The notes: generated from the sequence alone by a model not told the origin. A DNA stretch of 64,000 bases from an uncultured virus (IMG/VR IMGVR_UViG_3300005678_000009) (IMGVR_UViG_3300005678_000009:1-64000); one strand, 5' to 3'; shown: positions 2,625 through 25,849, counted from the stretch's first letter. Made by a program: numbers and translations.

Positions 2625-2636
2625 TAGGAGTTTAAA

Positions 2637-8302: not shown

Positions 8303-8309
8303 TATTTTT

Positions 8310-9832: not shown

Positions 9833-10906
9833 ATGAAAAAAAATCCTAACAATTTTACAGATAGAGAGTTCCAAGAGTTGGCAGCACTTGTCAATTCTAC
9901 TATTGTTAAAAATGATGGATTGGTTGGCAATCAAGAAGACCAGGTAGAGCTTGTGGTCGAATTGGAAAAGAAGTTCAAATATCATATCTCAAAATATCAG
10001 CAAACTGTTGAAATCTATAGAAAATTTATCAAAAAATTTAATAATGATGACGATGAAGAACAGCAGCAAGAAAATTCGGAGCTAGAAAACATTTTAAGTG
10101 CCCAGCCGTATTTTCGTGAGAAGAATGAGGTTTTTAGTAAGATCTCTAAGGCTATTAAAGAAAACGACCCAGTTGCTTTAATGCAATATAACATTAACTT
10201 TCAAATGATTGATTTTATTGTTAAAAATTGGCGTGGAAATGTACCTGAGAGAGCCCGAAGATATTATGAAGATTTTTTGGATGCTAGACGCGTATTGATT
10301 GAAAACAATCTACCACTAGCGATCAATCGAGCAAAATTATTTTATCGCAAAACCCCCAAGTCACACCTAACTCTATTGGATTTGATTGATATTTGTACTT
10401 ACGGACTGATTGCCGGTATTGATAAATATGAAGGCGAATATACTAAGGTTTGGCGTTCCGTATGTATTGGTCGTATGGTTGGTTTTATGATTGAGGAGTA
10501 TTCCAAGACATTCTTGAGAATGTACCCTAGTGATAAGAAAATTCTCTATAGAGCTAACGCATTGAAATATAGATTAAAATTAGAAGATATTGGTGAGCTT
10601 ACAAAGGCCGTTAATGAATCTTTTAAACAAGACAAAGAAGAAGGCAAAAGCGCACCTAAATTACCCATTTCTGAATTACACATTAGAACATTAATGAATA
10701 GTTCTAGTTATGTATCTGCAGATCCTAGTGCAAATGAAGAAGAGGAAGAAAGTGCGTTGAGTGTTTATGATTTAGCGCACGACAATACAGAAAGTGCGGA
10801 AGACCGCTTGATTCATGACGATTTAATGGATAGAATCAAAGAAGGTTCTAAAATTTTGACAAACATTGAAAGAAAAATTATTAGACTAAAAGGAGTTAAT
10901 CTATGA
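9833..10906 (+). CDS. Phage sigma70-family RNA polymerase sigma factor lacking region 4.2
   Basis: Region 2: 'ARRVLIENNLPLAINRAKLF...LLDLIDICTYGLIAGIDKYE'. Ends at region 4.1-like 'LTNIERKIIRLKGVNL*'. Confidence 0.8.
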   Translation: MKKNPNNFTDREFQELAALVNSTIVKNDGLVGNQEDQVELVVELEKKFKYHISKYQQTVEIYRKFIKKFNNDDDEEQQQENSELENILSAQPYFREKNEVFSKISKAIKENDPVALMQYNINFQMIDFIVKNWRGNVPERARRYYEDFLDARRVLIENNLPLAINRAKLFYRKTPKSHLTLLDLIDICTYGLIAGIDKYEGEYTKVWRSVCIGRMVGFMIEEYSKTFLRMYPSDKKILYRANALKYRLKLEDIGELTKAVNESFKQDKEEGKSAPKLPISELHIRTLMNSSSYVSADPSANEEEEESALSVYDLAHDNTESAEDRLIHDDLMDRIKEGSKILTNIERKIIRLKGVNL

Positions 10907-11208
10907 TCACTGTAAACGGAAAGCTAATGTTAGAGCCTTATAAAGGGAGTGGGAAAATTGAGGCAAGTAATAAAAATGCTGGCTACGCTACCATTAAGCA
11001 AAAAGACACGTTAGTTGGATTAAAAGCTTTAGCTGATGGTCGTGTAAATATTGGTAAGGATACTATCGACGTGAAGAAGGGACAAACTGTGTATTTTCCA
11101 GAAGATGTTCTTGCAACTTTCGAATGGTCTAAAAAAACACTTCATTTAGAAGGCAATGAGCAACGTTTTATTCTTGCAGATGCTGTTCATGCTGTAGCGG
11201 TAGTATGA
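10903..11208 (+). CDS. GroES-like co-chaperonin
   Basis: About 100 aa with the GroES strand pattern 'VNGKLMLEP...ALADG...DVKKGQTVYF...AVAVV'. Confidence 0.55.
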   Translation: MITVNGKLMLEPYKGSGKIEASNKNAGYATIKQKDTLVGLKALADGRVNIGKDTIDVKKGQTVYFPEDVLATFEWSKKTLHLEGNEQRFILADAVHAVAVV

Positions 11209-11663
11209 TTAAACAAAAGCATTTGGATAGTTATTATAAACAAGCCTTGGCGATTGCAGAACAATCTCCAGACGAACAGACGAAAGTCGCTTCGTTACTT
11301 ATCCATTCCGAAACCAGAGCGGTTCTTGGAAATGGATTTAATGGTTTTGTTCGTGGTGCTCCAGATGCTAAACTGCCCAAGACTCGCCCTGAAAAGTACG
11401 ACTACATTGTTCATGCTGAAACCAACATGATTTACAATTCAGCTAGACATGGGGTAAGCACAGACAAATGCTTTGTATTTTGTACCCTTTCCCCTTGTGT
11501 TAATTGTTGTCGTGCGATGTACCAGGCTGGTATTAAGGTGGTTTATTTTAAAGAAAAATACAGAGATTTTGATAAACAAACTGAAATGTTAGATTTGAAT
11601 TTGACACTTGAATCTGTTTATAATTGTGAGTATTATAAGCTGACTATTTCGCCAAAGGAATAA
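11205..11663 (+). CDS. dCMP deaminase (ComEB-like)
   Basis: 'GFNGF', 'VHAETN', 'SPCVNC' zinc motifs. Confidence 0.88.
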   Translation: MIKQKHLDSYYKQALAIAEQSPDEQTKVASLLIHSETRAVLGNGFNGFVRGAPDAKLPKTRPEKYDYIVHAETNMIYNSARHGVSTDKCFVFCTLSPCVNCCRAMYQAGIKVVYFKEKYRDFDKQTEMLDLNLTLESVYNCEYYKLTISPKE

Positions 11664-11664
11664 T

Positions 11665-12630
11665 ATGCGAATTTTAAGGGTGGGAGACCCCCACGTCACT
11701 GTAAGAAATTTAGAAGACTCTGAAAAACTAATGGCTTTTATTTTGAAAAAAGCTGAAGAATTTAATGTACACAAGATCGAATTTCTTGGCGATCTAATGC
11801 ACACTCACGCTGTTATTCGTGTTGAAGTCCTTGATTTTTGGCAAAGACACTTCAAAAAACTTTCTCAGGGATACTTTGTTATTGCTCTGGTGGGAAATCA
11901 CGACCAACCTGGTAGTAAAGAAAAAGAACAGTTGATGAATGCTTTAAATGCATTTAAGGGTATTGAAGACGTTACAATTGTCAGCAAACCAGTGGTAATT
12001 GATAATATTGGTTATATTCCATACCACAGCGATGAGGGTGAATTTCTTAAAGCTGCTTCTGATCTACACTACAATGGCGCTGTAAAAACATTGGTTGCTC
12101 ATCAAAATTTTACCGTACCTTTGTACTCAGATATGTTCAACCCAGAACTGGTGCCTCAAGAACACATCATTACTGGCCACATTCACGAACAAAAGCAAAT
12201 GGGAAAGGTTTTTCAGGTTGGAACTCCTAAGTGGGATACCCTAACAGATGCAAATGAATCTAAAGGAGTTTGGATTTATGACCATAATGAAGACGGTTCT
12301 GTAAAAGCCAAGCAATTTATTTCTACCAAAGAAGTGGTTACTGTAATTGAAAAACATACCATTAAAGAAGGCGACCCAGAACCAGAATTAATCCCAGGTG
12401 CCAAGAATTATGTAGAGCTGGTTGGTTCCACCGCTTGGATTAATGAAATGAAAAAGAAATATAAGGGTTTGGCTTCTATTAAAGCCAGACCTTCTGATCG
12501 TAAGACATCCAGTGCGAATAAAGAAAAAGCACAGTCTGTTTATGAATTTCTTAATTCTGCTTTTCAGCCGATTGATGGTGTAAAAAAGCAAGATATTGAA
12601 CAATATTTAAAAGAGGTGATTCGTGTCTGA
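11665..12630 (+). CDS. SbcD/Mre11-like metallophosphoesterase nuclease
   Basis: GDPH, LGDL, VGNHD, AHQ, TGHIH motifs; an SbcC-like gene lies nearby. Confidence 0.8.
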   Translation: MRILRVGDPHVTVRNLEDSEKLMAFILKKAEEFNVHKIEFLGDLMHTHAVIRVEVLDFWQRHFKKLSQGYFVIALVGNHDQPGSKEKEQLMNALNAFKGIEDVTIVSKPVVIDNIGYIPYHSDEGEFLKAASDLHYNGAVKTLVAHQNFTVPLYSDMFNPELVPQEHIITGHIHEQKQMGKVFQVGTPKWDTLTDANESKGVWIYDHNEDGSVKAKQFISTKEVVTVIEKHTIKEGDPEPELIPGAKNYVELVGSTAWINEMKKKYKGLASIKARPSDRKTSSANKEKAQSVYEFLNSAFQPIDGVKKQDIEQYLKEVIRV

Positions 12631-12985
12631 AGAAGTAAAAAAAGAAGAGCAGTCTATTGTAGATGAACATAGAAAAATGGTAATTATGACTGGCAATCTT
12701 TCTGATTTTCAACTTGAAAACCTTAAAAATTGGGCTTTTTTGATCTTTGACAAAGAAGTGCTGGTAAACGCCAAAATTACTTATGATTTTACCAAGCTTG
12801 TTGCAGAAGAAGAATCTTTATCGCCCGGTGCAGTTCAGTATGATTTTTATTTTAAACCAGGAACCAAGTTAAATCGAGCTGACGTTAAAAAAAGAATAGA
12901 ACACCTGAGAATGTGGGTAAAATTTATGTTTTGGAAAGAAACTGAAGTTAGAATTCTCAAAGAAGGTAAAAAGTGGCAGATTTAA
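12623..12985 (+). CDS. Hypothetical protein
   Basis: SD GAGGTG, GTG start, overlaps both neighbours. Confidence 0.6.
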   Translation: MSEEVKKEEQSIVDEHRKMVIMTGNLSDFQLENLKNWAFLIFDKEVLVNAKITYDFTKLVAEEESLSPGAVQYDFYFKPGTKLNRADVKKRIEHLRMWVKFMFWKETEVRILKEGKKWQI

Positions 12986-13620
12986 TTCTACCTGATTTAC
13001 CTCAAGACATGACCAAGGAAGAAAAAGAAGCCGTTCAGGAATTTATCAACAACGGTTGTCCTGGTATTGTTCGTGTGCAAGATGGCGATATTTTTAAGTT
13101 TTTTCAACTCTACATGTCTGGAAAAACATACGCTGAAATTGCAACTATCACAAAAGCTCCTAAGGATTTGATCATGTATCTAGCCTATCGCTCTAGATGG
13201 ATGGAGCATCGTTTTAAACACTATGAAAACATCTCCTTAAACATTCTAGATAAGATTAAGCAGGTAAAGCTTGATAGTGCCAATAACCTGGTGACAATTG
13301 TAAAAGCTCTTGGTCAATATTGTGAGATGAAATACAATAGCTTTCTATCTACTAAAAACCAAGAAGTAATCGAAAAAATTGACAGTAAGATTGTAACCCA
13401 ATACTTCAAAGCAATTGAATTGTTGGATAAGGTATTAAGTGAAGAGCCTGGTGATGAAGAAACCAAGCCAAAAGGACCGCTGGTGAATGTCAATGTTGGT
13501 TTAGGTGCTTCGGCAACTATTAAACAAACAGACGCCAAAACTCTAGAAATTACCGATGAAACAGCCGGTGATCTGGTAAAAGCCCTTGCTAGTATGAAAA
13601 AACAAGCAGAGCGTCGCTAA
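12973..13620 (+). CDS. HTH protein, possibly terminase small subunit
   Basis: 'LYMSGKTYAEIATIT' HTH, helical middle, C-terminal 'VNVNVG' beta strand as in many TerS proteins. Confidence 0.4.
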   Translation: MADLILPDLPQDMTKEEKEAVQEFINNGCPGIVRVQDGDIFKFFQLYMSGKTYAEIATITKAPKDLIMYLAYRSRWMEHRFKHYENISLNILDKIKQVKLDSANNLVTIVKALGQYCEMKYNSFLSTKNQEVIEKIDSKIVTQYFKAIELLDKVLSEEPGDEETKPKGPLVNVNVGLGASATIKQTDAKTLEITDETAGDLVKALASMKKQAERR

Positions 13621-13623
13621 TTT

Positions 13624-13634
13624 TGTGGTATTAT
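13624..13634 (+). promoter_or_regulatory. TGTGG-TAWWAT promoter motif
   Basis: TGTGGTATTAT in the intergenic gap. Confidence 0.7.
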
Positions 13635-13664
13635 ACATATAAGCCCATTGAGGCAGAGGTGAAA

Positions 13665-14684
13665 ATGAAAAACGTTATCGCAATTATGCTGAGTTTACTC
13701 ATGGTGAGTACCCTGGCATTGGCGTCAGCCCAAAATGAGGCCGACAAGAAAAAAGAAGCTGCTGGGAAGCCAGCGTCCGAACAACCCATTATCTTGACAA
13801 AAGATAATACCATCACGCTTAATAATGCGTTTTATGGTGATACCGTGGCTAATTTAGCTAAAGAAGCTAAAGAGTTAGATTCTAGAACAGAATCAACAGA
13901 TCCAATCTATTTAGTTCTAAATAGTCCAGGTGGTTCCATTGATGCAGGTTTAGAGTTGATTGAAATTTTATCAAGTCTTAAACGACCGGTTAAAACAATC
14001 AGTATTTTTTCAGCTAGTATGGGTTTTCAAACCGTACAAGGTCTAGGAGAACGCTTGGTTGTAAGAGATGGTACTCTTATGTCACATAAAGCTCGCGGCG
14101 GATTCTATGGTGAATTCCCAGGGCAACTTGATAGTCGATATAGCTATTATTTAAAGCGTGTAAATCGAATGAATGAGCAAGCGGTTGCTCGTACAAACGG
14201 TAAACACACAATGAAGAGCTATGCAGATTTAATCGAAAATGAATTTTGGTGCGATGGTAAAGATTGTGTTGCAGAAGGATTTGCGGATAGAGTAGTAACA
14301 GCTCAATGTGATAAGTCTTTATCTGGAACTAAAACCGTTAGTGAAGCTAAATTTATTTACATGGGTCATGTTATTGAATTTACTTCTGATTATGACTTAT
14401 GCCCGGTAAATACAAACTATCTAGCTTGGCATATTTTGATTGATGGTGAGCCATTATTCAAAGATAACACGAAAAAAGATGATAAGAAAGCACAAGATAC
14501 AACGGCTGGGTCTTCAGGCCCTAGTATGTGGTCTTCATATTTCGGTGGATATGGATCTTCGTATTCTTCATCTTCAGAAGAAAAGAAACCAGCTTTAACT
14601 GCAGAGCAATTGTTTGAAATCCAACAAAAAGCTAAAAAACAACAGGAAGATAAGCAAAATCGACAAGTAATTAAAGGTTACTAA
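13665..14684 (+). CDS. ClpP-fold (S14) serine protease with an N-terminal signal peptide
   Basis: Likely start MKNVIAIMLSLLMVSTLALA behind SD GAGGTG. 'IYLVLNSPGGS', 'SASMG' (Ser), 'LMSHK' (His), 'GFADRV'. Confidence 0.75.
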   Translation: MKNVIAIMLSLLMVSTLALASAQNEADKKKEAAGKPASEQPIILTKDNTITLNNAFYGDTVANLAKEAKELDSRTESTDPIYLVLNSPGGSIDAGLELIEILSSLKRPVKTISIFSASMGFQTVQGLGERLVVRDGTLMSHKARGGFYGEFPGQLDSRYSYYLKRVNRMNEQAVARTNGKHTMKSYADLIENEFWCDGKDCVAEGFADRVVTAQCDKSLSGTKTVSEAKFIYMGHVIEFTSDYDLCPVNTNYLAWHILIDGEPLFKDNTKKDDKKAQDTTAGSSGPSMWSSYFGGYGSSYSSSSEEKKPALTAEQLFEIQQKAKKQQEDKQNRQVIKGY

Positions 14685-14710
14685 TCAATACTTTAAAAAA
14701 TATTTTTCAA

Positions 14711-14735
14711 AAGGCTCCGCAAGGGGCCTTTTTTT
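14711..14735 (+). terminator. Rho-independent terminator fused to a TATGG-TATGAT promoter
   Basis: AAGGCTCC-GCAA-GGGGCCTT followed by a T-run, then TATGGTATGAT (14735-14745). Confidence 0.8.
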
Positions 14736-14761
14736 ATGGTATGATGCTTCAGAGGTGAATT

Positions 14762-15013
14762 ATGCCAATGATTAAATTTCAGTGCAACAATCCAGATTGT
14801 GAGAACCATATCACTAAACTTTTTACTGATGTTAAATCAATCCCACCATTTCTAAATTGCGGAGAGTGTGGTACTGGTAAACTAGAAAGACAATTAGGTG
14901 CTCCAAGCTCTAAGTCTACCCAAATCTTGGACGATGGTTTGCAGACAAAAAGATTAGAGATTATGAACGACGTTGTTGAAAAAGAACGTGAACGCCTACA
15001 AACAGAGGAATAA
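14762..15013 (+). CDS. FmdB-like zinc-ribbon protein
   Basis: 'MPMIKFQC...C...CGECG...LERQL'. Confidence 0.65.
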   Translation: MPMIKFQCNNPDCENHITKLFTDVKSIPPFLNCGECGTGKLERQLGAPSSKSTQILDDGLQTKRLEIMNDVVEKERERLQTEE

Positions 15014-17011
15014 ATGATTCAATTATTAGCCCTTCGTTTTGGACAAATTAGATCTTTTGTGGATGATCAAGAAATTGTATTTGCCAATCGTGAAAAGCTC
15101 ATTCAGATTGATGGTAAAAATCTAAATACCGGTGGGTCATCTGGTTCTGGTAAAAGTACAGTGTTGATGGTATTGGATTATCTTTTGGGATTAAACGATG
15201 TTCCAGCAACATTGTTGCAATCTCGTCTTACTAAAAGTGGGATGTGGGCTGAGGGTGATTTTGTTATTGATGGGCAACCTGTGACGATCTCTCGTAGTAA
15301 AAAAGATGGTCTTTCAATCACTATGGGTGATAATAAGGTTTCTGGAAATTCAGATCAAGCTGAAGAAAAATTACAAGAATTAATCGGTCTTCCGATGCCC
15401 ATTTTTAAGAAAATGATTCATAAGCGTCAAAAAGAAGGTGGGTTTTTTCTTGGCCTGGGCGCTTCTAAAACCTACAAATTTCTTGTTTCTGTATTAGGTT
15501 TGGAAAAACATATTACTGATATCGATGCCATTGTCGCTGATATTAAAAGATGGGACGAAGAGGCCACAGCCGCACAACGGACTTTAGATTTAGATCGCAG
15601 TTCTTTATTAGATCTAGAAAGAATTTTGTCAGAAAAACAAAAACCAGTTCAAAACTATTCCGATGAGCAAATTGAGCAAATGAACAAGGACGTTCAGGGT
15701 CTTCAGATTACCCTTCGTGCTCTAAAAATGCAAGTAAAAGAGGATGTGGCTGAGGTGCCAGTTGTTGTGGACAAAACTATCGACGCTACAGAATTGAATC
15801 AAAAAATTTCAGCTTTGGTACCACGACGAAATGAATTGAATGGGTTTATTAAAGATTTAGAGAATGTTAAGGTTAACCTGCAAGCTGAAATCAATAAAAT
15901 TCCTTTTTATCTTGCTGATGCTCAAAAGGCTGGAAAAAGAATTTCTGATCTTAGGGCTGAAATGGCCCATATAGAACAATCACAATGTCCTAAATGTATG
16001 CAAAACTGGGTCGGTGACTCCGCAAAAGCTTCTATTGAATCTATTAAGGGTGAAATTGATCAAAAAATTAGCGAAGCTCTTGCCTTAAAAAGTAAGATTG
16101 ACACAAAGCCTGATCTAGAAAGTAAACTTTTGACTGTCATTAATGAAATTGCTACGCATAATCAAGAACTTATCCAATTACAGGAACAACGTGCCGGTTA
16201 TGATGCAACTAAATATGCCATGATGGAAGCTGTTGGTAGTGAAAATGCGATTGCTAGACAGAAATATAACGAAAAAATCAAAACTATTGAAGTGAATTCT
16301 CAAAAAAACATCGATGCAATCAACCAGAAGCTCAAGGATGCTGAAATTGCCTTAAATGGTGAAGAAATCAAGCGTAACAGCTATTTGATCGCCATGAGGT
16401 CTTATGAGAAGGATGTAGAGGCTTTACAAGGCTCAATTACCAGAAAACAAAACGAGATTCAAAACTCAACCACCAAATTAAACGATTTGGGTAAAAAGCT
16501 GGTAGTGGCCAAAGAATCTCAAAGATTAATCAAGGCTTATGTTTTACAGACCTTCCAAGATACATTAGATGCTATCGGAGAAACAGCGACTAATATTTTG
16601 TCAGCCATTCCAAATATGAACACCTCAACGATCTATTTTGAGAATTGCAAGGAAACCAAAACTGGCTCAATTAAAGACGAAATTACCGCCATTATCAATA
16701 TAGACGGTAATAATGACATTCCCATCAATTCCCTATCGGGTGGTGAGAAGACAGCTGTCGATTTAGCAGTCGATTTAGCAGTTATCGATGTCATTGAACA
16801 AAAAGTAGCGAAGGGTGCCAATTTCTTTTTTATGGACGAACCTTTTGATGGTTTGGACTCTGTATGTAAGGAAAATTGCTTAGAAATCTTAAAACAAGTG
16901 GATACTAACAAAAAAATTATTATGGTAGATCATAGTTCTGAGTTGAAAGAAATGGTCTCGGATGTTATTCTGGTTGTAAAAAATGGTGAATCAAGCTCAA
17001 TTGCGAGCTAG
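15014..17011 (+). CDS. SbcC/Rad50-like ABC ATPase
   Basis: Walker A GSGKST, coiled coils with CPKC zinc hook, signature LSGGE, Walker B/D-loop FFMDEPFDGLD. Confidence 0.88.
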   Translation: MIQLLALRFGQIRSFVDDQEIVFANREKLIQIDGKNLNTGGSSGSGKSTVLMVLDYLLGLNDVPATLLQSRLTKSGMWAEGDFVIDGQPVTISRSKKDGLSITMGDNKVSGNSDQAEEKLQELIGLPMPIFKKMIHKRQKEGGFFLGLGASKTYKFLVSVLGLEKHITDIDAIVADIKRWDEEATAAQRTLDLDRSSLLDLERILSEKQKPVQNYSDEQIEQMNKDVQGLQITLRALKMQVKEDVAEVPVVVDKTIDATELNQKISALVPRRNELNGFIKDLENVKVNLQAEINKIPFYLADAQKAGKRISDLRAEMAHIEQSQCPKCMQNWVGDSAKASIESIKGEIDQKISEALALKSKIDTKPDLESKLLTVINEIATHNQELIQLQEQRAGYDATKYAMMEAVGSENAIARQKYNEKIKTIEVNSQKNIDAINQKLKDAEIALNGEEIKRNSYLIAMRSYEKDVEALQGSITRKQNEIQNSTTKLNDLGKKLVVAKESQRLIKAYVLQTFQDTLDAIGETATNILSAIPNMNTSTIYFENCKETKTGSIKDEITAIINIDGNNDIPINSLSGGEKTAVDLAVDLAVIDVIEQKVAKGANFFFMDEPFDGLDSVCKENCLEILKQVDTNKKIIMVDHSSELKEMVSDVILVVKNGESSSIAS

Positions 17012-17014
17012 ATT

Positions 17015-17025
17015 TGTGGTATTAT
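17015..17025 (+). promoter_or_regulatory. TGTGG-TAWWAT promoter motif
   Basis: TGTGGTATTAT followed by SD AAGGAG. Confidence 0.7.
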
Positions 17026-17041
17026 TACTAAGGAGAGACAA

Positions 17042-17383
17042 ATGAGCATTAACGATAGACTTGAAGCAGATATGATTGAGTTTTTTGAAAATATCGAAAA
17101 ACAACTACCTGAAGCACGAAAGAAAACACTGAAATTGTTGATTGATAAATATGCTCATTTACTGTCAACACCAGTTATGCTTGATAAGCATGATTACGAG
17201 CTAATTAGGGATTCAGCACAAAGATTCTTCGTGAATTCTGCCTTTCCTAAGTATTTGGGTGAAAAGAAGCGTATGGTTGATTCATACGAAGCAAATGTAC
17301 TTTCTATTATTGAAGGTACAATTACAGTTTTAAATAGTAAGGATTGTTTTAAAAAACTTCCTAAATTTGATTACAGAGATTAG
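17042..17383 (+). CDS. Hypothetical protein
   Basis: Promoter and SD upstream. Confidence 0.65.
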   Translation: MSINDRLEADMIEFFENIEKQLPEARKKTLKLLIDKYAHLLSTPVMLDKHDYELIRDSAQRFFVNSAFPKYLGEKKRMVDSYEANVLSIIEGTITVLNSKDCFKKLPKFDYRD

Positions 17384-17384
17384 T

Positions 17385-17636: not shown

Positions 17637-17931
17637 AGAAGAAGTACTAAAAACAAAAGTACGCAATGAATTTCCTGAATTTATTGAAAGCGTAGACAAT
17701 TTACCTGTAGAAAAATTGAATGAAAATTTACTACGATATGCTGTTTATCGCGAAGAAACAGAGATGGCTAAATCAACCGACAAGGGTTTAATTAAAGCCA
17801 AAAACGATGTTAAAGAATATCAAGCTCCTTATAATGAAACACTAAAGGCCCTTAAGCTTAAAATGGCTTACCTGCACCTTTTAATTGTTGAGAAAAAAGG
17901 CGGCAGTGATGAGAAGGCTAAAGCCGAATAA
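17620..17931 (+). CDS. Hypothetical helical protein
   Basis: SD GGAGGG upstream. Confidence 0.65.
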   Translation: MSEVDKEEVLKTKVRNEFPEFIESVDNLPVEKLNENLLRYAVYREETEMAKSTDKGLIKAKNDVKEYQAPYNETLKALKLKMAYLHLLIVEKKGGSDEKAKAE

Positions 17932-18499
17932 GTCAGCCTACGATGCCAATGGACGTTGGGTAGAGGAGCGTGGACAAATTAAAGGTGCGATTCGTCGTGT
18001 CTTTAGGTTGTCCCCTCAAATGCAAGAAGTCCTTAAAGCTGCTAGGGTTGAACTTCCACCTAAAACAAAAAAAGACGGCGAACCTGGCAAAAAAAATCAG
18101 GTTCGTTACACTTGTGCTATTTGTCAAAAGCTATACCAGCAGGCAAATGTACAGGTTGATCATATTGACCCCGTAGTTCCATTGTGGAAAGCCGAGTCTA
18201 CTATGACATATGATGAGATTGTTAGACGTGTATTTTGTCACATCAGCAATCTCCAAGTGATTTGCTCAACCCCCATGAAGAAAAATAATGGTGAACCGAG
18301 CTGTCACAAAATAAAAACGGATAGAGAGAATTTCATCCGTGATGAATTGAAAAAAGTTATGAATATTCTTGATCATACTGGTGAAGAGATTGACGAGTTG
18401 ATCAAAAATGCTTCAGCTAAATATGATGTGTATTTTGCTGAAAAAGAAGAAAAAAGGAAAGCTAAGCTTGCGAGAAAAAAACGACTCCAAAATCTCTAA
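17909..18499 (+). CDS. HNH-type nuclease
   Basis: 'YTCAICQK...VQVDHIDPVVP...NLQVIC...CHKIKT'. Confidence 0.75.
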   Translation: MRRLKPNKSAYDANGRWVEERGQIKGAIRRVFRLSPQMQEVLKAARVELPPKTKKDGEPGKKNQVRYTCAICQKLYQQANVQVDHIDPVVPLWKAESTMTYDEIVRRVFCHISNLQVICSTPMKKNNGEPSCHKIKTDRENFIRDELKKVMNILDHTGEEIDELIKNASAKYDVYFAEKEEKRKAKLARKKRLQNL

Positions 18500-19292
18500 C
18501 GGACAGGAAATCGCCAACCAAATCAATGCGATGCGAGCTGAATATGAGCTTCGCTCTGAGGATGTGGTTAACGAAGAAATGTCTTTTTTGGACAGGTTGA
18601 ATAGACTTGTTCAATTGATTTTGGATGATGATTCTGCAAGCATCTATCCTGCTCTAAACCAAGATTCCCTAAAAGAATGGAAAAAAGGAAGATTTAAACG
18701 ATGGCTTAAAAAGACCATCACTTCTAATTATAAAAATACATTCTATTTTGCTTTCTTGGTGTCTATTACAGCATTTCTAGTGAGTGAAGCTGTTACGTTC
18801 TATGCTGATGGACAAACACCTGATACAAAAACATATATTAAAGCTATTCTTACAGAAGTAGCTTTTATTTTTTTAAGTGGCTATAAAACCGAAGGCTGGA
18901 AAAATAAAGTCTGGGTCAATACCCTTAGAGCTGGTGTGTTTTCATTAATGCTATTTGTAATTTCTTCACAAACATTGTTATCTGGAACTAAGTTTCAAGG
19001 TAACACAACTGCAGTTACTGAACAGGTTAAGTTCCTGGAAGAGCAAATTGCAGAAAAACAAAAAACCATCCAATTTTATCTTGATAAAGGATGGGGAAAC
19101 AGTGTGCGTAAGCAAACCGAAGAAAAAAACAAACTTGTCGAAAAACTTTTGGAACTTAAAGAACAACAAGCTCAGGGCTCCAACGAAGCTGTGTCTAACC
19201 AGGTTATGTATCGTAGCTATGGCCAGGCATTCTTTCGAATTATCCTATTGTTTATTTCAGTGTTAATTACGCGCCGTATTTTCATTTTCTAG
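18468..19292 (+). CDS. Membrane protein with several TM segments and a coiled coil (start uncertain)
   Basis: Hydrophobic stretches FYFAFLVSITAFLV, AILTEVAFIFL, GVFSLMLFVIS, IILLFISVLI flank a coiled coil. Confidence 0.6.
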   Translation: MREKNDSKISNGQEIANQINAMRAEYELRSEDVVNEEMSFLDRLNRLVQLILDDDSASIYPALNQDSLKEWKKGRFKRWLKKTITSNYKNTFYFAFLVSITAFLVSEAVTFYADGQTPDTKTYIKAILTEVAFIFLSGYKTEGWKNKVWVNTLRAGVFSLMLFVISSQTLLSGTKFQGNTTAVTEQVKFLEEQIAEKQKTIQFYLDKGWGNSVRKQTEEKNKLVEKLLELKEQQAQGSNEAVSNQVMYRSYGQAFFRIILLFISVLITRRIFIF

Positions 19293-19302
19293 AGGAGTTT
19301 CA

Positions 19303-20286
19303 ATGAGTTTACTGGTACCTCGTGCCACTTACGCTCCCTTTGAGTATGAACAAGCATACAAATTTTGGGAGCTTCAACAACAAAGCCACTGGCTACATAC
19401 AGAAATAGCCATGGCGTCAGACATCAATGACTGGAAGATGGTTTTAACAGATGCCGAGCGCAATGTTATTGGTCACATCCTCAAGGGTTTTACCCAATCA
19501 GAAGTGTTTATTCAAGAATATTGGTCACAAATGATCGCCAAATGGTTTAAAAAGCCCGAAATTCAAATGATGTCAGCGGCTTTTGCGAGTATGGAGTCTG
19601 TACACGCCGTATCCTATGCATATTTGAATCAATCCCTGGGCCTAGAGGATTTCTCTGCATTCTTGCATGAACCTACAGCCAAAGCCAAAATTGATCGTTT
19701 AATCGAAACTAAAGGTAAAACAAAGGAAGAAATTGCCAGATCTATTGCTATCTTCTCTGGATTCAACGAGGGTGTAAACCTATTCAGCTCCTTTGCGGTT
19801 TTATTGAACTTCAGTCGCTTCAACAAAATGAAGGGCTTAGGTCAAATCATTGCCTTTAGTATTAAGGATGAATCCTTACACTCAGAAGCTGGATGTTGGC
19901 TTTTTAGGACTCTTATTAAGGAATTTCCAGCTATTTGGACGGATGAGCTTAAAAAAGACATTTATGACGCAGCTCGTTTAACTGTGCAATTAGAAGACGA
20001 ATTTATCGACAAAGCGTTTGAACTCGGCCCTATCGAAGGATTAGACCCTGTTGATCTTAAAGCTTTTATTAGACATAGAGCTAATACCAAGCTAACAGAC
20101 TTGGATTTAAAGATTAATTGGAAAAATATCGACAAAGACTCACTTACACGCATGGAATGGTTTGATGTAATGAGTGCCGGTGTAAACCATTCAGACTTCT
20201 TTGCTTCTAGGGTTTCTGATTACTCTAAAGGTACAATTGATTTTTCTAAAATTTGGGATGAAGAAAATGACACTACAAGAACTTAA
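19303..20286 (+). CDS. nrdB: Ribonucleotide reductase class I beta subunit
   Basis: Di-metal motifs 'ESVHAVSY', 'EGVNLFSSF', 'DESLH'; C-terminal 'DFFASRVSDYSK'. Confidence 0.93.
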   Translation: MSLLVPRATYAPFEYEQAYKFWELQQQSHWLHTEIAMASDINDWKMVLTDAERNVIGHILKGFTQSEVFIQEYWSQMIAKWFKKPEIQMMSAAFASMESVHAVSYAYLNQSLGLEDFSAFLHEPTAKAKIDRLIETKGKTKEEIARSIAIFSGFNEGVNLFSSFAVLLNFSRFNKMKGLGQIIAFSIKDESLHSEAGCWLFRTLIKEFPAIWTDELKKDIYDAARLTVQLEDEFIDKAFELGPIEGLDPVDLKAFIRHRANTKLTDLDLKINWKNIDKDSLTRMEWFDVMSAGVNHSDFFASRVSDYSKGTIDFSKIWDEENDTTRT

Positions 20287-21961
20287 AGATATTAAGGCAG
20301 CTCCAGAATGGATGACAGAAGAAGGTTACAAAACACTTAGCGGTGGATATCTTCTTCCAAACGAAACCCCATTGGAAATGTACACTAGGGTAGCCAATGC
20401 TGCTGGGAGTTATTATGAAGAAAGTTCAAAATGGTCTAAGAAGTTTTTTAACGCGATGTGGAAAAACTGGCTCTGTCCTGCTTCGCCGGTATTGTCAAAT
20501 ATGGGAACAAGTCGCGGTTTACCCATCTCTTGCAATTCAATTCACGTGGGTGATTCTGTCGATTCTATATTCGGCAAATCTCATGAGCTTGCAATGCTTT
20601 CAAAAAATGGTGCAGGTGTTGGTATCTATCTCGGTGATATACGTGGTCGTGGCACTGCCATTCGTGGCAATGGTCGTTCAGAAGGCATTATTCCGTGGGC
20701 AAAAGTCTACGACACCACCACGGTAAGTGTTTCGCAAGGCTCTACTCGTCGAGGTGCCTCAGCTGTTTATCTACCTGCAGATCACTCAGACATTGAAGAG
20801 TTTATTAATATGCGTCGTCCCACTGGTGATGTTAATCGTCGCTGTATGAACCTGAACCATGGTGTTTGTGTTACCAATGACTGGATGAATGCTTTACTTG
20901 CTGGTGATAAAAAGAAGCGCGAGTTATGGCAAGAAATCCTTAAGGCACGTGTGGAAACTGGTGAGCCATACCTTTTCTTCACAGATAATGTAAATGAACA
21001 AAACCCTGAGTGCTACAAAGGAAACAAACTAGATGTAAAAACATCTAATATTTGTACTGAGATTTTTCTTTATACTGACCCAGATCATAGCTTTGTATGT
21101 TGTTTGTCTTCACTTAATTTGGTGAAATGGGAAGAATGGAAAGATACTGATGTTGTTCAAACCTCAGTTCGTTTTCTTGATGCAGTGTTGGAAGAATACA
21201 TTGTTAAGTCAAAGATGGTGCCTGGTCTAGAAGCCTCTAGAAGAGCTGCCATTAAAGGTCGAGCCATTGGAATTGGTGTTCTTGGATGGCATACGCTATT
21301 ACAAAAGAATATGTTTCCGTTCGATAGTTTTGAAGCTATGATGCTTAATGCACAAGTCTTTAGAACCATTAGGACAAATGCCGAAAAAGAAACTGCAGCA
21401 TTGGCTATTGAAAAAGGCGAGCCAGAATGGTGTAGAGGTTATAATAGAAGAAACACCCATTTAATCGCTATTGCACCAACAGTAAGCAACAGTTTAATTA
21501 GCGGCGGACATTCTGCTGGTATTGAACCCATTCCTGCAGCTATTTATTCACAAAAGTCAGCAAAAGGAACTTTTATTCGCAGAAATCCTGTGTTTGAAGA
21601 TCTGTTAAAGTCAAAAGGCAAGGATACGCCGGAAATCTGGAAGTCTATTATTGAAAACAATAACTCTGTTAACCATTTAAAATTCTTAACAGATTTAGAA
21701 AAACAAGTGTTTATGAGTGCAATGGAAATCAATCAATTTGCTATCATTAAACAAGCTGCACAAAGACAAAAATGGATTGATCAAGGTCAATCTATCAATG
21801 TATTCTTTGGTGCCAATTCAGACCCCAAGTATATCCATGAAGTGCATATGGAAGCTTGGAAGACTGGCATTAAATCATTGTATTATTGCAGAAGTGAGGG
21901 TGTTATTCGTGGAGATCTTGCATCTCGTAGCAAAGAAGAGTGTGCGGCCTGCGAAGGTTGA
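20267..21961 (+). CDS. nrdA: Ribonucleotide reductase class I alpha subunit (short, no ATP cone)
   Basis: 'PASPVLSN', 'ISCN', 'SNICTEI', 'CCLSSLNL', 'APTVS', 'KSLYY', C-terminal 'CAACEG'. Overlaps the nrdB end. Confidence 0.93.
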   Translation: MTLQELKDIKAAPEWMTEEGYKTLSGGYLLPNETPLEMYTRVANAAGSYYEESSKWSKKFFNAMWKNWLCPASPVLSNMGTSRGLPISCNSIHVGDSVDSIFGKSHELAMLSKNGAGVGIYLGDIRGRGTAIRGNGRSEGIIPWAKVYDTTTVSVSQGSTRRGASAVYLPADHSDIEEFINMRRPTGDVNRRCMNLNHGVCVTNDWMNALLAGDKKKRELWQEILKARVETGEPYLFFTDNVNEQNPECYKGNKLDVKTSNICTEIFLYTDPDHSFVCCLSSLNLVKWEEWKDTDVVQTSVRFLDAVLEEYIVKSKMVPGLEASRRAAIKGRAIGIGVLGWHTLLQKNMFPFDSFEAMMLNAQVFRTIRTNAEKETAALAIEKGEPEWCRGYNRRNTHLIAIAPTVSNSLISGGHSAGIEPIPAAIYSQKSAKGTFIRRNPVFEDLLKSKGKDTPEIWKSIIENNNSVNHLKFLTDLEKQVFMSAMEINQFAIIKQAAQRQKWIDQGQSINVFFGANSDPKYIHEVHMEAWKTGIKSLYYCRSEGVIRGDLASRSKEECAACEG

Positions 21962-21967
21962 TATTTT

Positions 21968-21978
21968 TGTGGTATAAT
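21968..21978 (+). promoter_or_regulatory. TGTGG-TATAAT promoter motif
   Basis: Intergenic TGTGGTATAAT. Confidence 0.72.
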
Positions 21979-21996
21979 AACACTTGAGAGGTAATT

Positions 21997-23025
21997 ATGG
22001 CAAATATGTGGGATAAAGAAGAATCGGTGTCAGAATACCAACTGATGGCCGAAGATGCGCAGCAAGCAGAAGAGCTTGCGGAGCAATACGCTTCTAGCCC
22101 AGGGTTGGTAGAGGCAAACGAAGAGGTTTTGGAAGAAATCTCCGATGAGGCTGCTTTTGAATTAACCAATACAGAATCTAATGTAATCTATAACGCTAGA
22201 TTACGATTAGAACAAGCCAAACTTTATGAATTACTCATTAATCACAATCTTTTTGAAGGAGTGGATGCAAGTCCACAGGCAATTAAAAATGTTCAAAACG
22301 AACTTAAATTTTACATTGTTAAAAGACTTGAGATTTTACTTGGTTTGCGTGAACCTACAGCTGCTAAAGTTAATACAGCACCTGCAGAATCACAGTTTAA
22401 TGATGTTGAAGTAGAGTTTTTAAAACAACTAGCTTATAAAGGCACTTTAGGTAAGTCAATTGGGCAACCGATTGTTGCAAATCCACAACAGGTCGTTAAG
22501 CCATTAACAAGTACTCCTAGCTCTGGTTTAAAGCCATTGGCTAAAATTAAAAAAACAGAACCCCCTACTGAGGTGAAACAAACAGTTGAACAACCACCAA
22601 CTAAGCCAGTTCAAAAGAAAGTTGTAGTTCAACCACAACAAAAAACACAAGCGGCACCGCCATCTCAGCCAAAACCACAACCCAAAAAAACTGTTAAGGT
22701 AAGACCTTCTGGACTTGGCAGGGATTTAACTCAAGATGAAATTATGGCCATTGCACAAGAAGATCTTAAAACAGCTTCTAACAAACCATTTCATGAAATG
22801 ACCCCTAAAGAGAAAGCGGAAAGAATTCGCCAAGCAAATGAAAGAAATGCTAGAAATAAGGCTCCAGTTGCTAAAATGCCAATGCCATCAGCAGCTGAAT
22901 TAGAAATGAAATATGCGACCCAGCAACAATCTGGTTCGATGTCAAAAAGTTCAACAGATCAATTTAATGTAGCGATTGCACAGGCTATCGCTGCCAAGAA
23001 AAATAGAGGAGATGACAATGAGTAA
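21997..23025 (+). CDS. Hypothetical protein with acidic N-terminus and P/Q/K-rich linker
   Basis: Promoter and SD GAGGT upstream; long ORF. Confidence 0.7.
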   Translation: MANMWDKEESVSEYQLMAEDAQQAEELAEQYASSPGLVEANEEVLEEISDEAAFELTNTESNVIYNARLRLEQAKLYELLINHNLFEGVDASPQAIKNVQNELKFYIVKRLEILLGLREPTAAKVNTAPAESQFNDVEVEFLKQLAYKGTLGKSIGQPIVANPQQVVKPLTSTPSSGLKPLAKIKKTEPPTEVKQTVEQPPTKPVQKKVVVQPQQKTQAAPPSQPKPQPKKTVKVRPSGLGRDLTQDEIMAIAQEDLKTASNKPFHEMTPKEKAERIRQANERNARNKAPVAKMPMPSAAELEMKYATQQQSGSMSKSSTDQFNVAIAQAIAAKKNRGDDNE

Positions 23026-23608
23026 CGAAGCTAAGCCAGCAGCCCAACCAGCAAAGTTGAATGCAGCTCAAAAGATCGAGGCCCTTGAAAACAAGGTGAT
23101 TAACCTGCAGGCTCAAATTAATGAGTTAGTTGCAATTCTCGAAGAAAAGGTGAACATTCTTGCCGATGAAATCGACAAAACACGTCAAATTGGAGTTGCG
23201 CTTAATAAGCGTTTAAACGCCTCAATTAAAGCTGCAGAAGATGGTGGTTTAAACACAGATTCTGTTAATAAAATCATTTTGGATGAAAACCAAAAAGAAC
23301 TTGCAGGTCGTATTAAATATCTATTAGATATGGGTGCATTGGTTGGTGACAACGAAGGTGAAGTTAGCGACAAATCTTTCTTGGTTGGAAGAACTGTTGA
23401 CGCACAAGGAAATGTCGTTAATCCACGAGTTCAGTTTGCAGTTGGTACTGTAGACCCAGAACTGAAAAAAGCTCTTATTGGTAAAAAACTGGGTGAAGTT
23501 GTAGGTTATAGTGAAGAAGAAGATCCATTCGAAATTACAGAGATCTATCAAATTGCTGACCCCAAGACTAAAAAAAATTATGAGGAAAATCAACAGCCTG
23601 CACAATAG
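23018..23608 (+). CDS. Coiled coil plus FKBP/GreA-CTD-like domain protein
   Basis: SD GAGGAG; C-terminal 'DAQGNVV...FAVG...LKKALIGKKLGEVV...FEITEIY'. Confidence 0.5.
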   Translation: MSNEAKPAAQPAKLNAAQKIEALENKVINLQAQINELVAILEEKVNILADEIDKTRQIGVALNKRLNASIKAAEDGGLNTDSVNKIILDENQKELAGRIKYLLDMGALVGDNEGEVSDKSFLVGRTVDAQGNVVNPRVQFAVGTVDPELKKALIGKKLGEVVGYSEEEDPFEITEIYQIADPKTKKNYEENQQPAQ

Positions 23609-23618
23609 GCTGTTTTTT
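23592..23618 (+). terminator. Rho-independent terminator
   Basis: AACAGCCT-gcacaat-AGGCTGTT followed by TTTT. Confidence 0.65.
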
Positions 23619-23634
23619 AAAGCGAGGCTATCAA

Positions 23635-24834
23635 ATGGTTGAAAAATGGTCTGATAATGAGATAGCTTACATTATCAACTTAAAAGATACGACAGATCTT
23701 ACTTGGGTAGAAATTACCGATAAGTATAATAAAAAGTTCAGAACTGATCGTAACTTTGAAAGCATTAAAAAGTGTTATCAGAGGTATGCAAATTATCTTG
23801 ACACTGCTGACATTCATGTCAAGACACTTAAGCAAATCCATCGAACTAAAAAGAACAGTGGATATACAGCGAAAGAAAATAAGTCTATTATTGAACAGTG
23901 GAATGAACGTGACGATTTAATCGAGACGATTCAAAACACTGTCAAGAAAATGTCACTTACAAAGTATAAAGTACCCAAGCAAGCTGCAAAGTCCAAAGCC
24001 AAAAAGAACATGACGTTAGAGTTGCTATTCTCTGACGTTCATTACGGCAAATACATTGACAATATTGATGGAAACTTCGTTGATATAAAAGTAATCCGTG
24101 AGCGCGTTCGCAAGATTTCCGATTCTGTGGTGAAAGAAATCATCCGTGAGGGAAAGTCTTTTAATGTCGAACGTGTTGTTCTTGCCTTAATTGGTGATAT
24201 TATTGAGAATGCAGACTTCCACGGACAAGAATCTGAAAAAGGCTGTGAATTCAGCACTTCACGTCAGGTTCAAGAAGCAATTAATTCTATGTTCTACGAC
24301 TTGATTTTGCCAATTGCAAACACAGGGATTAAGATTGACGTTCCTTGCGTAACTGGTAATCACGATCGTATTGGTCACAACAAAACTTACCAAAAACCAG
24401 GTGAGGATAATCTTACTTTTATTATTTACAGCACCCTAGAAATGCTTTGCAAAGCTTCTGGACTTACAAATGTTCATTTCCAAATTTCTAAGAGTTTGTA
24501 CACTGCCATTTCAATCTATGGAAACACAGTTGTTTATGAGCACGGAGACGAACTTAAGAATCTGAATCGAGATACTATGGCCAATCAAATGGCCAAGAGA
24601 CAGGTACAACTTGGTCGAGTAGTTCATTTCTTTCGAGTTGGTCACTGGCACGAGCCGGTTCAGTACGGACAAGGTCGAATGATGGTAAATGGTTCTGTAC
24701 CTGGCCAAGATGATTATGCTGATTCAAAAGCTTTTTGTTCTGAGGCAGTTCAAATTATGAACTACTATGTTGAAACTGAAAAGCGAAACACTTGTTTCTT
24801 CCGTAGTTTTCCAATTTACGTTCAAAAGAAATAA
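23635..24834 (+). CDS. Calcineurin-like metallophosphoesterase with an N-terminal Myb/HTH-like domain
   Basis: SDVHYG, IGDIIEN, GNHDR, EHGD, GHWH; N-terminal 'WSDNE...W.EI...YN..F...R'. Confidence 0.75.
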   Translation: MVEKWSDNEIAYIINLKDTTDLTWVEITDKYNKKFRTDRNFESIKKCYQRYANYLDTADIHVKTLKQIHRTKKNSGYTAKENKSIIEQWNERDDLIETIQNTVKKMSLTKYKVPKQAAKSKAKKNMTLELLFSDVHYGKYIDNIDGNFVDIKVIRERVRKISDSVVKEIIREGKSFNVERVVLALIGDIIENADFHGQESEKGCEFSTSRQVQEAINSMFYDLILPIANTGIKIDVPCVTGNHDRIGHNKTYQKPGEDNLTFIIYSTLEMLCKASGLTNVHFQISKSLYTAISIYGNTVVYEHGDELKNLNRDTMANQMAKRQVQLGRVVHFFRVGHWHEPVQYGQGRMMVNGSVPGQDDYADSKAFCSEAVQIMNYYVETEKRNTCFFRSFPIYVQKK

Positions 24835-24863
24835 CATTAAAAATAAAAATATTGTTTTTTAAG

Positions 24864-24886
24864 AGGCTCCGAAAGGAGCCTTTTTT
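24864..24886 (+). terminator. Rho-independent terminator fused to a TATGG-TAATAT promoter
   Basis: AGGCTCC-GAAA-GGAGCCT followed by a T-run, then TATGGTAATAT (24886-24896). Confidence 0.8.
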
Positions 24887-24916
24887 ATGGTAATATAACA
24901 ATATGAGAGGTGCAAC

Positions 24917-25261
24917 ATGGGTAGAAAAAAACATACCGAAAAACCTCACAATAATGAAGAAAAACTTGAAAAAGTGATTGTGCGATTAGAAAGAGATATT
25001 AATAAATTGAAATCTAGAAATAAATCTCTAGAAGAAGATTTAAAAGCCACAGCAGAATACTTGATGCAGATTTCCAGAGACAAAACTCTAGATTTTATTC
25101 AACAAGAAATTCAAGATAAAACAGAAGTTAAAACTGACAAAGTTTGTCCACGCTGTAGCTCCACAAACATGAGAAGGGTCAATCTGGGTGTTGTGACAAT
25201 CATCGCCTGTGGTGATTGTGAATATAGGAATAGAATTAATGAGTCAGGACAAAAAACTTAA
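24917..25261 (+). CDS. Coiled coil plus zinc-ribbon protein
   Basis: CPRC...CGDC at the C-terminus. Confidence 0.65.
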   Translation: MGRKKHTEKPHNNEEKLEKVIVRLERDINKLKSRNKSLEEDLKATAEYLMQISRDKTLDFIQQEIQDKTEVKTDKVCPRCSSTNMRRVNLGVVTIIACGDCEYRNRINESGQKT

Positions 25262-25628
25262 ACAGCTCAAGGATCATATCGTGGGACTTGTTATGAAATT
25301 GACGGTTATTGAAAGTGATCTAAAGGCTGTTGAAGGTGATTTGGTGTTTCTAGAGTCCATGAAACTCAATATGGAAGAAAACATTAAGATTCTAAAAAAA
25401 GATGGAATTGTAACGATTGCTGCTGAATATAAAAAGATTATGGCTGAAAAGGCCACGCTTGACAAAAACCTAACCTTTTACATTAACGTTAAAAATAAGT
25501 TATTAAGAGACCAGAGTAAGTACGAGAAGTTGAAAGATGACTCTATGAATGAGTTTGAGCGTTTAAGTAAAAATGAAGAAAATCAACAAGTTATAGTTCA
25601 GTTTGATCCATCTAAAAGGAAAAAATGA
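25239..25628 (+). CDS. Hypothetical coiled-coil protein
   Basis: ORF overlapping both neighbours. Confidence 0.6.
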   Translation: MSQDKKLKQLKDHIVGLVMKLTVIESDLKAVEGDLVFLESMKLNMEENIKILKKDGIVTIAAEYKKIMAEKATLDKNLTFYINVKNKLLRDQSKYEKLKDDSMNEFERLSKNEENQQVIVQFDPSKRKK

Positions 25629-25837
25629 AGGATAAGAAAGTTTTGAAAAAGAAAATCATGGAAGACCCCGATTTTATTTATTGTCCTCGACTTGGCAATT
25701 CCTTAACAAAATTGGTCAACAAACACCCCGATGGTATTGATGACGAAAGAATTGAAAAGGTGTTGTTGATGACAAAAAGTGAAATTGAAACAGTTTATCA
25801 ATCTGCTTTGGAAAAATTACGAGATTTTGTAAAATAA
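25625..25837 (+). CDS. Stand-alone sigma70 region-4.2-like HTH protein
   Basis: DDERIEKVLLMTKSEIETVYQSALEKLR aligns gap-free with E. coli sigma70 [28 protein letters not shown] (9/28 identical by hand). Confidence 0.6.
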   Translation: MKDKKVLKKKIMEDPDFIYCPRLGNSLTKLVNKHPDGIDDERIEKVLLMTKSEIETVYQSALEKLRDFVK

Positions 25838-25838: not shown

Positions 25839-25849
25839 TGTGGTATAAT
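25839..25849 (+). promoter_or_regulatory. TGTGG-TATAAT promoter motif driving the exonuclease-dnaE genes
   Basis: Intergenic TGTGGTATAAT. Confidence 0.72.

Follow-up and report, generated by a model that had tools for sequence, protein, structure and literature searches.

The 64,000-nucleotide stretch of an uncultured virus analysed here (IMGVR_UViG_3300005678_000009:1-64000; the whole of it is hereafter called the window) encodes a sigma70-family factor that stops inside its fourth domain, ahead of the region 4.2 helix-turn-helix (9833..10906, + strand). On the same strand and 14.7 kb away it also encodes a protein of 70 amino acids (aa), here called the mini-protein (25625..25837), which probably belongs to the sigma4.2/LuxR class of helix-turn-helix proteins. 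That the sigma truncation is real and by design is close to certain. The best explanation overall, which we hold tentatively as something not quite probable, is that a phage sigma without region 4.2 and an acidic mini-protein share sigma domain 4. The sigma would most likely steer the host RNA polymerase to single-block phage promoters lacking a -35 box, while the mini-protein would most likely not read DNA; it would replace sigma4.2 on the polymerase (at the beta flap tip and the beta-prime zinc-binding domain) and dock with the sigma 4.1 helices, domain 4 thereby being divided between two polypeptides. In this explanation we infer mutual or polymerase binding, the class of promoter read by the sigma and the function of the mini-protein. 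Judged as a separate claim, a working partnership between the mini-protein and either the sigma or the polymerase likewise falls a little short of probable.

The window is part of a 71.8-kb virus record with a completeness estimate of 45%. The same phage is present in a 166,783-base record (G001), a complete genome in which the window begins at base 88148. The only cultured relative found was Myxococcus phage Mx1 (169.6 kb), whose annotated 'putative RNA polymerase sigma factor' (CDS 2071..3078 of OR576727.2) shares 42% identity with residues 86-254 of the window sigma and whose sigma locus keeps the window gene order of helicase, sigma and phosphoesterase. Megablast of the region against phage records returned zero matches.

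The phage sigma factor and where it ends

The original prediction described a sigma70-family open reading frame (ORF) at 9833-10906 with a clear region 2 and a C-terminal end within region 4.1, and the ORF is present there with the ending that was quoted. Sequence comparison identifies its 357-aa product as a diverged sigma70-family factor beyond Pfam detection. It comprises a region 1.2-like part, regions 2 and 3 and an acidic linker, after which come what are probably the two opening helices of domain 4 (region 4.1). Searched against Pfam it had no Sigma70 match, Sigma70_r2 included, at E ≤ 1, and against PHROGs it matched a sigma family weakly (E = 0.0079). A profile built from 28 members of the sigma family gave 48 matches in the PDB at E ≤ 1, 47 of which were sigma factors aligned on region 2 (best E = 2.5e-4). 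With hhalign, residues 151-200 were placed on residues 375-420 of Escherichia coli RpoD (sequence from rpoD of NC_000913.3) at 39% identity over 46 columns (E = 7.8e-4). Foldseek, run with the AlphaFold2 model, listed 50 matches, every one a sigma chain or else a scaffold derived from a sigma (best E = 5.2e-4 at a probability of 1.00). Template-modelling scores were only about 0.3, a low value that is usual where a protein has several domains. Region 2 is therefore clear to the PDB profile, hhalign and Foldseek, but not to Pfam.

The AlphaFold2 model (predicted local distance difference test, pLDDT, 75) has an acidic disordered linker at residues 292-319, followed by closing helices at 322-339 and 344-352. 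The ORF, ending in LTNIERKIIRLKGVNL and the stop codon, finishes 5 residues past the last modelled helix, and the region 4.2 helix-turn-helix is absent. Aligned to Aquifex FliA, the sigma profiles reach no further than residue 198, which lies within helix 4.1 (family profile, E = 0.011; C-terminal profile, covering FliA 94-198, E = 0.057). The direct match between the tail and region 4.1 that had been proposed fared less well: the best gapless placement of the 16-residue tail on RpoD does fall in the 4.1 helix (551-566), but 3946 of 5000 shuffles reach its score, which is chance level, so that the assignment to region 4.1 rests on the FliA profile alignments.

The same ending was found throughout the family. 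A search for sigma homologues yielded 821 clusters (90% identity) at E ≤ 0.001, the best 120 listed spanning 307-381 aa, and a second search seeded with the most distant loci gave 468 matches, the best 120 listed spanning 341-365 aa. When the window sigma was aligned with 27 listed homologues of 56-90% identity, all 28 sequences ended in LKGV plus two residues; all 23 viral sigma loci (33-100% identity) ended in the LKGV motif plus 0-3 residues, as did Mx1. The missing region 4.2 of the original prediction is thus borne out as a family-wide trait. Neither a sigma with an intact region 4.2 nor a fusion of sigma and mini-protein occurred among the 240 listed sigma homologues (the best of the 821 and 468) or the 150 listed mini-protein relatives (the best of 481). 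The extra length of the 375-381-aa homologues is a cysteine-rich insertion upstream of region 2 and not a C-terminal extension. In homologues P0094, P0113 and P0119, an insertion of 26 residues with two CxxC pairs (zinc-ribbon-like) lies between the 1.2-like part and region 2.

That an ordinary sigma gene had suffered a frameshift, or been misread in sequencing, was named beforehand as an outcome that would undo the idea, and the conserved position of the stop defeats that objection. The 28 aligned homologues, the 23 viral loci and the cultured Mx1 all share it, and the next gene begins on the sigma stop codon (ATGA) and codes for a GroES-like protein. The chance that the truncation is an artefact is in our judgement negligible.

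Other sources for the missing part were considered and rejected. The ORF that overlaps the sigma stop (10903..11208, +, 101 aa) was ruled out, being GroES-like and not a helix-turn-helix protein: 24 of its 30 Atlas matches were viral clusters in which 12-25% of members carry Cpn10. This GroES-like gene follows sigma in 17 of 23 related loci, and the same phage encodes GroEL (G001 83866-85620; phrog_5725, E = 1.8e-92). A six-frame search of G001 for a second canonical sigma with Pfam Sigma70_r2 and Sigma70_r4 gave 0 matches at E ≤ 10. Among the 149 of 161 small G001 ORFs (45-170 aa) that were scanned, the sole strong helix-turn-helix was a stand-alone GerE/LuxR-type protein of 82 aa (Pfam E = 4.7e-14), encoded outside the window on the minus strand of G001 (41606-41851). 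All five relatives checked lack this protein, and it was ruled out as a clade-wide partner.

The mini-protein and its weak likeness to region 4.2

The mini-protein is the product of a real, conserved gene. It has 86 close homologues of 66-79 aa, and its profile, run against 1.84 billion representatives, recovered 481 clusters at E ≤ 0.001 (279 at E ≤ 1e-10); 146 of the 150 relatives listed as best were no longer than 113 aa. An N-terminal helix is followed by an invariant DFIYCPRLGNS motif, a short helix and what is probably a helix-turn-helix of the sigma4.2/LuxR type, its recognition helix being acidic, and the AlphaFold2 model (pLDDT 76) places helices at residues 3-13, 26-33, 40-47 and 51-69. 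The Mx1 homologue is not annotated in OR576727.2; it lies at about 157.4-157.7 kb on the minus strand and would be 80 aa long from a TTG start or 76 aa from an ATG.

The ORF and the stretch within it that had been compared with E. coli sigma70 were both found at 25625-25837, and the reported gapless alignment to RpoD 572-599 with 9 of 28 identities is correct. It involves mini-protein residues 39-66 and scores 33 with BLOSUM62, the best gapless placement in the whole of RpoD; 76 of 5000 shuffled 28-mers reach that score, which puts it modestly above chance. Alignment of the mini-protein family to RpoD with hhalign fell into the same register (mini-protein 44-67 on RpoD 577-600) and was not significant (E = 0.13).

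Three further comparisons pointed in the same direction. In the Atlas, eight clusters without a family name were followed by approximately 69-aa viral Sigma70_r4 clusters, which made up 22 of the 30 matches (17 led by a score of 0.93 and five by 0.92). Against the PDB, a profile of 79 diverse relatives matched the LuxR-type helix-turn-helix of NarL first (E = 0.0063), then FliA residues 200-238 of 247 (E = 0.014), WhiG (E = 0.067) and other sigma factors. When the 79 relatives were themselves searched with Pfam, eight matched Sigma70_r4 (best E = 6.8e-5), 14 matched HTH_69 and four matched GerE, and the Sigma70_r4 matches covered only profile positions of about 15-50 out of 50, the 4.2 half of the domain. 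On the Aquifex FliA structure 1rp3, where the sigma profile covers residues 94-198, the mini-protein profile covers 202-236, so that the two pieces look complementary and not redundant, at weak E-values of 0.057 and 0.76, respectively.

The earlier suggestion that the helix reading the -35 box has been replaced holds across the 79 relatives. Their columns aligned to RpoD 584, 585, 586 and 588, which we take to be -35-contacting positions, are acidic in 62, 68, 86 and 57% of sequences and basic in 9, 6, 1 and 18%, respectively. Acidic residues at these positions make it unlikely that the helix reads DNA. The proposed similarity to sigma4.2 is thus weak but consistent in the Atlas, the PDB profile and the Pfam matches of relatives, while remaining below thresholds and with uninformative fold searches; on balance, the mini-protein is probably a helix-turn-helix protein of the sigma4.2/LuxR class.

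Co-occurrence of the two genes, genomic setting and promoter-like motifs

Both genes were found in every near-complete relative examined, the outcome that the original prediction had asked of a co-occurrence check. The mini-protein gene counts as core in the Mx1-like clade to which the sigma also belongs. Its profile was detected in 11 of the 23 sigma-bearing records searched, among them all four with a completeness of 90% or more, and in Mx1; the 12 sigma records without a match are fragments estimated as 8-38% complete. In the reverse direction, eight of nine viral mini-protein loci lie in sigma-bearing records, and the ninth is a 7-kb fragment.

Complex prediction was run on the C-terminal 146 residues of the sigma together with the mini-protein, each supplied as an alignment made for this analysis, so that the calibration counts that follow are only rough. 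Scores for the pair were 0.41, 0.43 and 0.48 (median 0.43), against 0.00 for the best of three controls; contact agreement between runs was at least 93% and partner pLDDT at least 70. In calibration, 116 of 157 solved complexes attained the pass mark, as did 2 of 215 mismatched pairs. Scores of 0.60 or below account for only 18 of the 157 solved complexes reaching the mark and for both of the mismatched pairs that passed. Moreover, the two would be halves of one known domain, so resemblance to solved structures of sigma4 may account for the pass. Modelling sigma and mini-protein together, as had been proposed, therefore lends the partnership weak support (0.43 against a control of 0.00).

The mini-protein gene stands last of three in what is probably one operon. 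The first gene (24917..25261, +) encodes a 114-aa coiled-coil protein with a C-terminal CxxC-N17-CxxC zinc ribbon, which is found in only some relatives; its weak zinc-ribbon matches in Pfam, such as Zn_ribbon_TFIIB at E = 0.008, are below cut-off. We take its architecture to be like that of small RNA-polymerase-binding zinc-finger proteins, a family not among its matches. The second gene (25209..25628, +) encodes a coiled-coil protein without a family match in Pfam or PHROGs, which is 139 aa long if translation begins at a GTG and 129 aa long if it begins at an ATG (25239). Its stop codon overlaps the mini-protein start (ATGA), which suggests translational coupling, and a coiled-coil ORF of about 124-143 aa also precedes the mini-protein ORF in Mx1 and in the related loci read. 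In these relatives, Mx1 included, the coiled-coil proteins have a conserved short tail of hydrophobic residues, a phenylalanine and basic residues, possibly a peptide-docking motif. Downstream of the mini-protein gene, after a gap of 23 nucleotides (nt), come a DnaQ-like exonuclease (25861..26496, +; phrog_192, E = 1.6e-29) and then the DNA polymerase III alpha subunit, PolIII alpha (26496..30149, +; phrog_405, E = 1.1e-169).

Several observations weigh against the mini-protein being a detached half of sigma domain 4. All Sigma70_r4 scores of its relatives are under the gathering cut-off (best 22.7 versus 24.1 bits), the window protein itself has no Sigma70_r4 match at E ≤ 10, and HTH_69 is matched by more of the relatives (14 of 79) than Sigma70_r4 (8 of 79). 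The Pfam test of the mini-protein that had been proposed at the outset thus gave nothing for the protein itself and, for eight relatives, matches below the cut-off. The close-family profile retrieved no sigma factor in seven PDB matches and the next profile one in 14, at E = 1.2, and fold searches with the model stayed at noise level (best Foldseek E = 3.6; best VIA Z = 3.3, to a portal protein). The part best conserved among close relatives, DFIYCPRLGNS (residues 16-26), falls outside the sigma4.2-like stretch. In all related loci that were read, the gene lies in the replication module, just 5' of those for the exonuclease and PolIII alpha. It is 14.7 kb from sigma in a different operon, and it is coupled translationally to the coiled-coil gene and not to the sigma gene. 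One of the 150 listed relatives, P0289 (295 aa), fuses the mini-protein domain (residues 10-76) to the DnaQ-like exonuclease that the next window gene encodes, and none of the 150 is fused to a sigma; the three other long listed relatives have low-complexity N-terminal extensions only. Co-occurrence within one clade is also expected of any two core genes, and passes at this level of the complex score are mostly wrong when the interaction was not already likely beforehand.

Much of this would suit a different arrangement, in which the sigma works alone and the mini-protein, small and helical but unrelated to sigma, belongs to the replication module. Its partner would be either the coiled-coil protein or the exonuclease with PolIII alpha, which it would serve as a small accessory subunit like theta. 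The position of the gene, just 5' of PolIII alpha in Mx1 as well, speaks for it, as do the natural fusion, the ATGA overlap with the 139-aa coiled-coil gene, and sequence and fold evidence of sigma4.2 origin that is sub-threshold throughout. We regard this alternative as a serious one but lean against it. The Atlas, the PDB profile and the Pfam matches of relatives all favour the sigma4/LuxR helix-turn-helix class, and the predicted complex passed its controls, if weakly. The fusion occurs in only one of the 150 listed relatives, and losing a stop codon can join neighbouring genes; at the corresponding place in Mx1, the exonuclease gene is absent.

Two classes of promoter-like motif bear on the same question. 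Class 1, TRTGGTAWWAT, is of the extended -10 type (TGTG-n-TATAAT) and has 11 exact matches in the window against 0.51 expected, a count reached in none of 100 shuffles, and 23 times in G001 against 1.08 expected. The window sites begin at 8310, 9816, 13624, 17015, 17390, 21968, 24886, 25839, 31365 and 39197 on the + strand, with one at 51201-51211 on the - strand. All lie on the coding strand of their region, and in G001 a start codon follows 22 of the 23 sites at a distance of 5-62 nt. When the 23 sites were aligned, the sequence ahead of the motif and the T next to it nowhere exceeded 0.36 bits, which indicates that there is no -35 element. A T-run precedes several of the sites. Class 1 is enriched in relatives G005 (17 versus 2 in the control) and G012 (7 versus 0), not enriched in G003 (4 versus 2) or G016 (1 versus 2), and absent from Mx1.

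Class-1 motifs precede the genes for the helicase, the sigma, the exonuclease, GroEL and a thymidylate-kinase-like protein, as well as the mini-protein operon. Only 6 nt separate the motif at 9816..9826 (+) from the start codon of the sigma gene downstream. The one at 24886..24896 (+) immediately follows a GC-rich hairpin with its T-run (about 24865-24886) and probably starts the operon of the 114-aa, 139-aa and 70-aa genes. The motif at 25839..25849 (+) lies in the gap between the mini-protein and exonuclease genes, so that co-transcription of these two genes is not required, a point against the replication-module role. Terminator-like hairpins with T-runs that feed a class-1 motif were seen at about 24865-24886 and, with a one-mismatch motif, at about 14709-14745; these sites are terminator-promoter junctions between gene blocks.

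Class 2, CAATCTTTA, is present at 27 sites in G001 against 4.56 expected, about 17 of them, as read from the listings, within roughly 45 nt of a start codon. Start-proximal sites precede genes for endolysin-like, fibre/decoration-like, 1987-aa baseplate and 926-aa proteins and for two homing endonucleases. In the window, a motif at 8294..8302 (-) lies 16 nt upstream of the endolysin-like gene (7840..8277, -; phrog_894, E = 1.9e-9), another at 53251..53259 (-) lies upstream of the 669-aa fibre/decoration-like gene (51214..53223, -), and two, at 57470-57478 and 57500-57508 (-), lie upstream of the 926-aa gene (54615..57395, -). Some distances between motif and start codon are too short to hold a further -10 hexamer, so the 9-mer is probably the -10-like element itself, and class 2 is a candidate single-block late promoter. 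At window positions 8294-8320 and at about 74096-74114 of G001, class-2 motifs stand back to back with a class-1 motif on the opposite strand. Class 1 may be read early or in the middle of infection, possibly by the host primary sigma, and would then yield the phage sigma and the mini-protein; class 2 would be the late class, read by the phage sigma.

The lack of a -35 box in both classes fits a sigma that can do without that element, and it counts for a domain 4 shared with the mini-protein as well as for a sigma that needs no partner. The accessible part of PMC7948647 describes E. coli sigma70 without region 4.2 as inactive on a -10/-35 promoter and as keeping reduced activity on an extended -10 promoter, which again speaks for both readings.

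The mini-protein may also act on the host polymerase without the phage sigma, as a sigma4-like decoy on the flap tip or the host sigma that shuts -35-dependent host promoters. Phage inhibitors aimed at the flap or at sigma4 are known. A helix-turn-helix of sigma4.2 type whose acidic helix probably does not bind DNA would be suited to this role, the gene is probably driven from a promoter-like site of class 1 (probably early or middle), and the phage's own motifs need no -35 box. T4 gp33, in the accessible part of PMC7892883, offers a parallel: like sigma region 4, to which it is structurally unrelated, it clamps the flap tip helix, with acidic residues facing the beta-prime zinc-binding domain. 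A decoy without the 4.1 helix, however, would need its own hold on the flap, and the complex that was weakly predicted is with the phage sigma. Its mechanism overlaps that of a domain 4 shared between sigma and mini-protein, and the two are hard to tell apart in silico. We consider such a decoy distinctly unlikely.

The remaining gene set of the window is that of a large tailed phage, with a portal, a head protease, helicases, an SbcCD-like nuclease, ribonucleotide reductase, recombinase, primase/helicase and thymidylate synthase besides the exonuclease and PolIII alpha, and with tail fibres on the minus strand. Similarity to head maturation proteases appears in two separate genes (13623-14684 and 41987-42613, +; phrog_94, E = 4.2e-17 and 3.2e-35). 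A gene for a Thg1-like tRNA-His guanylyltransferase lies at 37525-38346 (+; phrog_4717, E = 4.9e-84). HNH, endonuclease VII-like and homing-endonuclease genes are dispersed among the core genes (3238-3753, 17885-18499 and 43093-43590, +; 50256-50864 and 53962-54630, -). The intergenic stretch 36536-36597 is unusually G+C-rich, with C runs and an inverted repeat, in a genome that otherwise has 37% G+C.

Relation to known sigma systems

The closest functional parallel is late transcription in T4, which relies on gp55 (similar to sigma region 2), gp33 (a binder of the beta flap) and the gp45 clamp. As far as the accessible part of PMC7892883 goes, both systems would combine a phage sigma without a -35-reading domain, a separate small acidic helical protein able to hold the beta flap tip and single-block promoters, and in both the gene for the small protein lies among replication genes. 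Unlike T4, the sigma described here keeps region 3 and the 4.1 helices, and the mini-protein looks derived from sigma4.2, whereas the same part of that source presents gp33 as structurally unrelated to region 4. The comparison with gp55 and gp33 made in the original prediction therefore stands as an analogy but not as homology: no PHROG match to either was found at E ≤ 0.1, and none was among the Pfam or PDB profile matches. A more specific proposal would have domain 4 cut at the 4.1/4.2 boundary and an acidic 4.2 co-factor, which would bind the flap and the zinc-binding domain without reading DNA and be encoded in the replication module and co-translated with the coiled-coil protein, tying late transcription from 9-bp CAATCTTTA promoters to replication, a T4-like logic evolved from sigma4 itself in hundreds of Mx1-like phages. 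In that full form we think it unlikely.

Division of sigma function over two polypeptides, as proposed here, is established for Bacillus subtilis SigO-RsoA, Tn916 Sig7-Sig8, SPO1 gp33/gp34 and T4 gp55/gp33, according to the accessible parts of PMC8103513 and bioRxiv 10.64898/2026.10.01.756105. In the same texts, SigO-RsoA, Sig7-Sig8 and SPO1 gp33/gp34 are split between domains 2 and 4 and jointly recognise the -10 and -35 elements. Unlike these described split sigmas, the present pair would have its break inside domain 4, between 4.1 and 4.2, with genes 14.7 kb apart and a 4.2-like piece that is acidic and probably reads no DNA.

The phage sigma ends at about the same place as the engineered E. 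coli sigma70 without region 4.2 (PMC7948647, accessible part). In intact sigma70, that region binds the beta flap tip helix; it also suppresses early pausing. Unlike the engineered protein, the truncation here is natural and conserved over more than 800 clusters at 90% identity. The mini-protein, in turn, resembles stand-alone Sigma70_r4/GerE proteins, including viral ones of approximately 69 aa, in size and helix-turn-helix pattern, and they are its nearest neighbours by protein-language-model features. It differs from them in belonging to a family below Pfam cut-offs, in its acidic recognition helix and in its own N-terminal DFIYCPRLGNS motif. A literature search, mostly outside subscription journals, found nothing on this family of truncated sigmas and mini-proteins or on the Mx1 sigma, and the Mx1 genome announcement names sigma in its reference list only.

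Described split sigmas part whole domains, so a family-wide break inside domain 4 with an acidic detached half would, if true, be new. Phages would have a route by which to give up reading the -35 box yet retain the contacts that sigma4 makes with the polymerase. With 821 sigma clusters and 481 mini-protein clusters, this is a large family, and the two motif classes without a -35 box provide concrete promoter candidates. Since the family includes the cultured phage Mx1, which grows on a harmless and genetically tractable host, the idea is directly testable.

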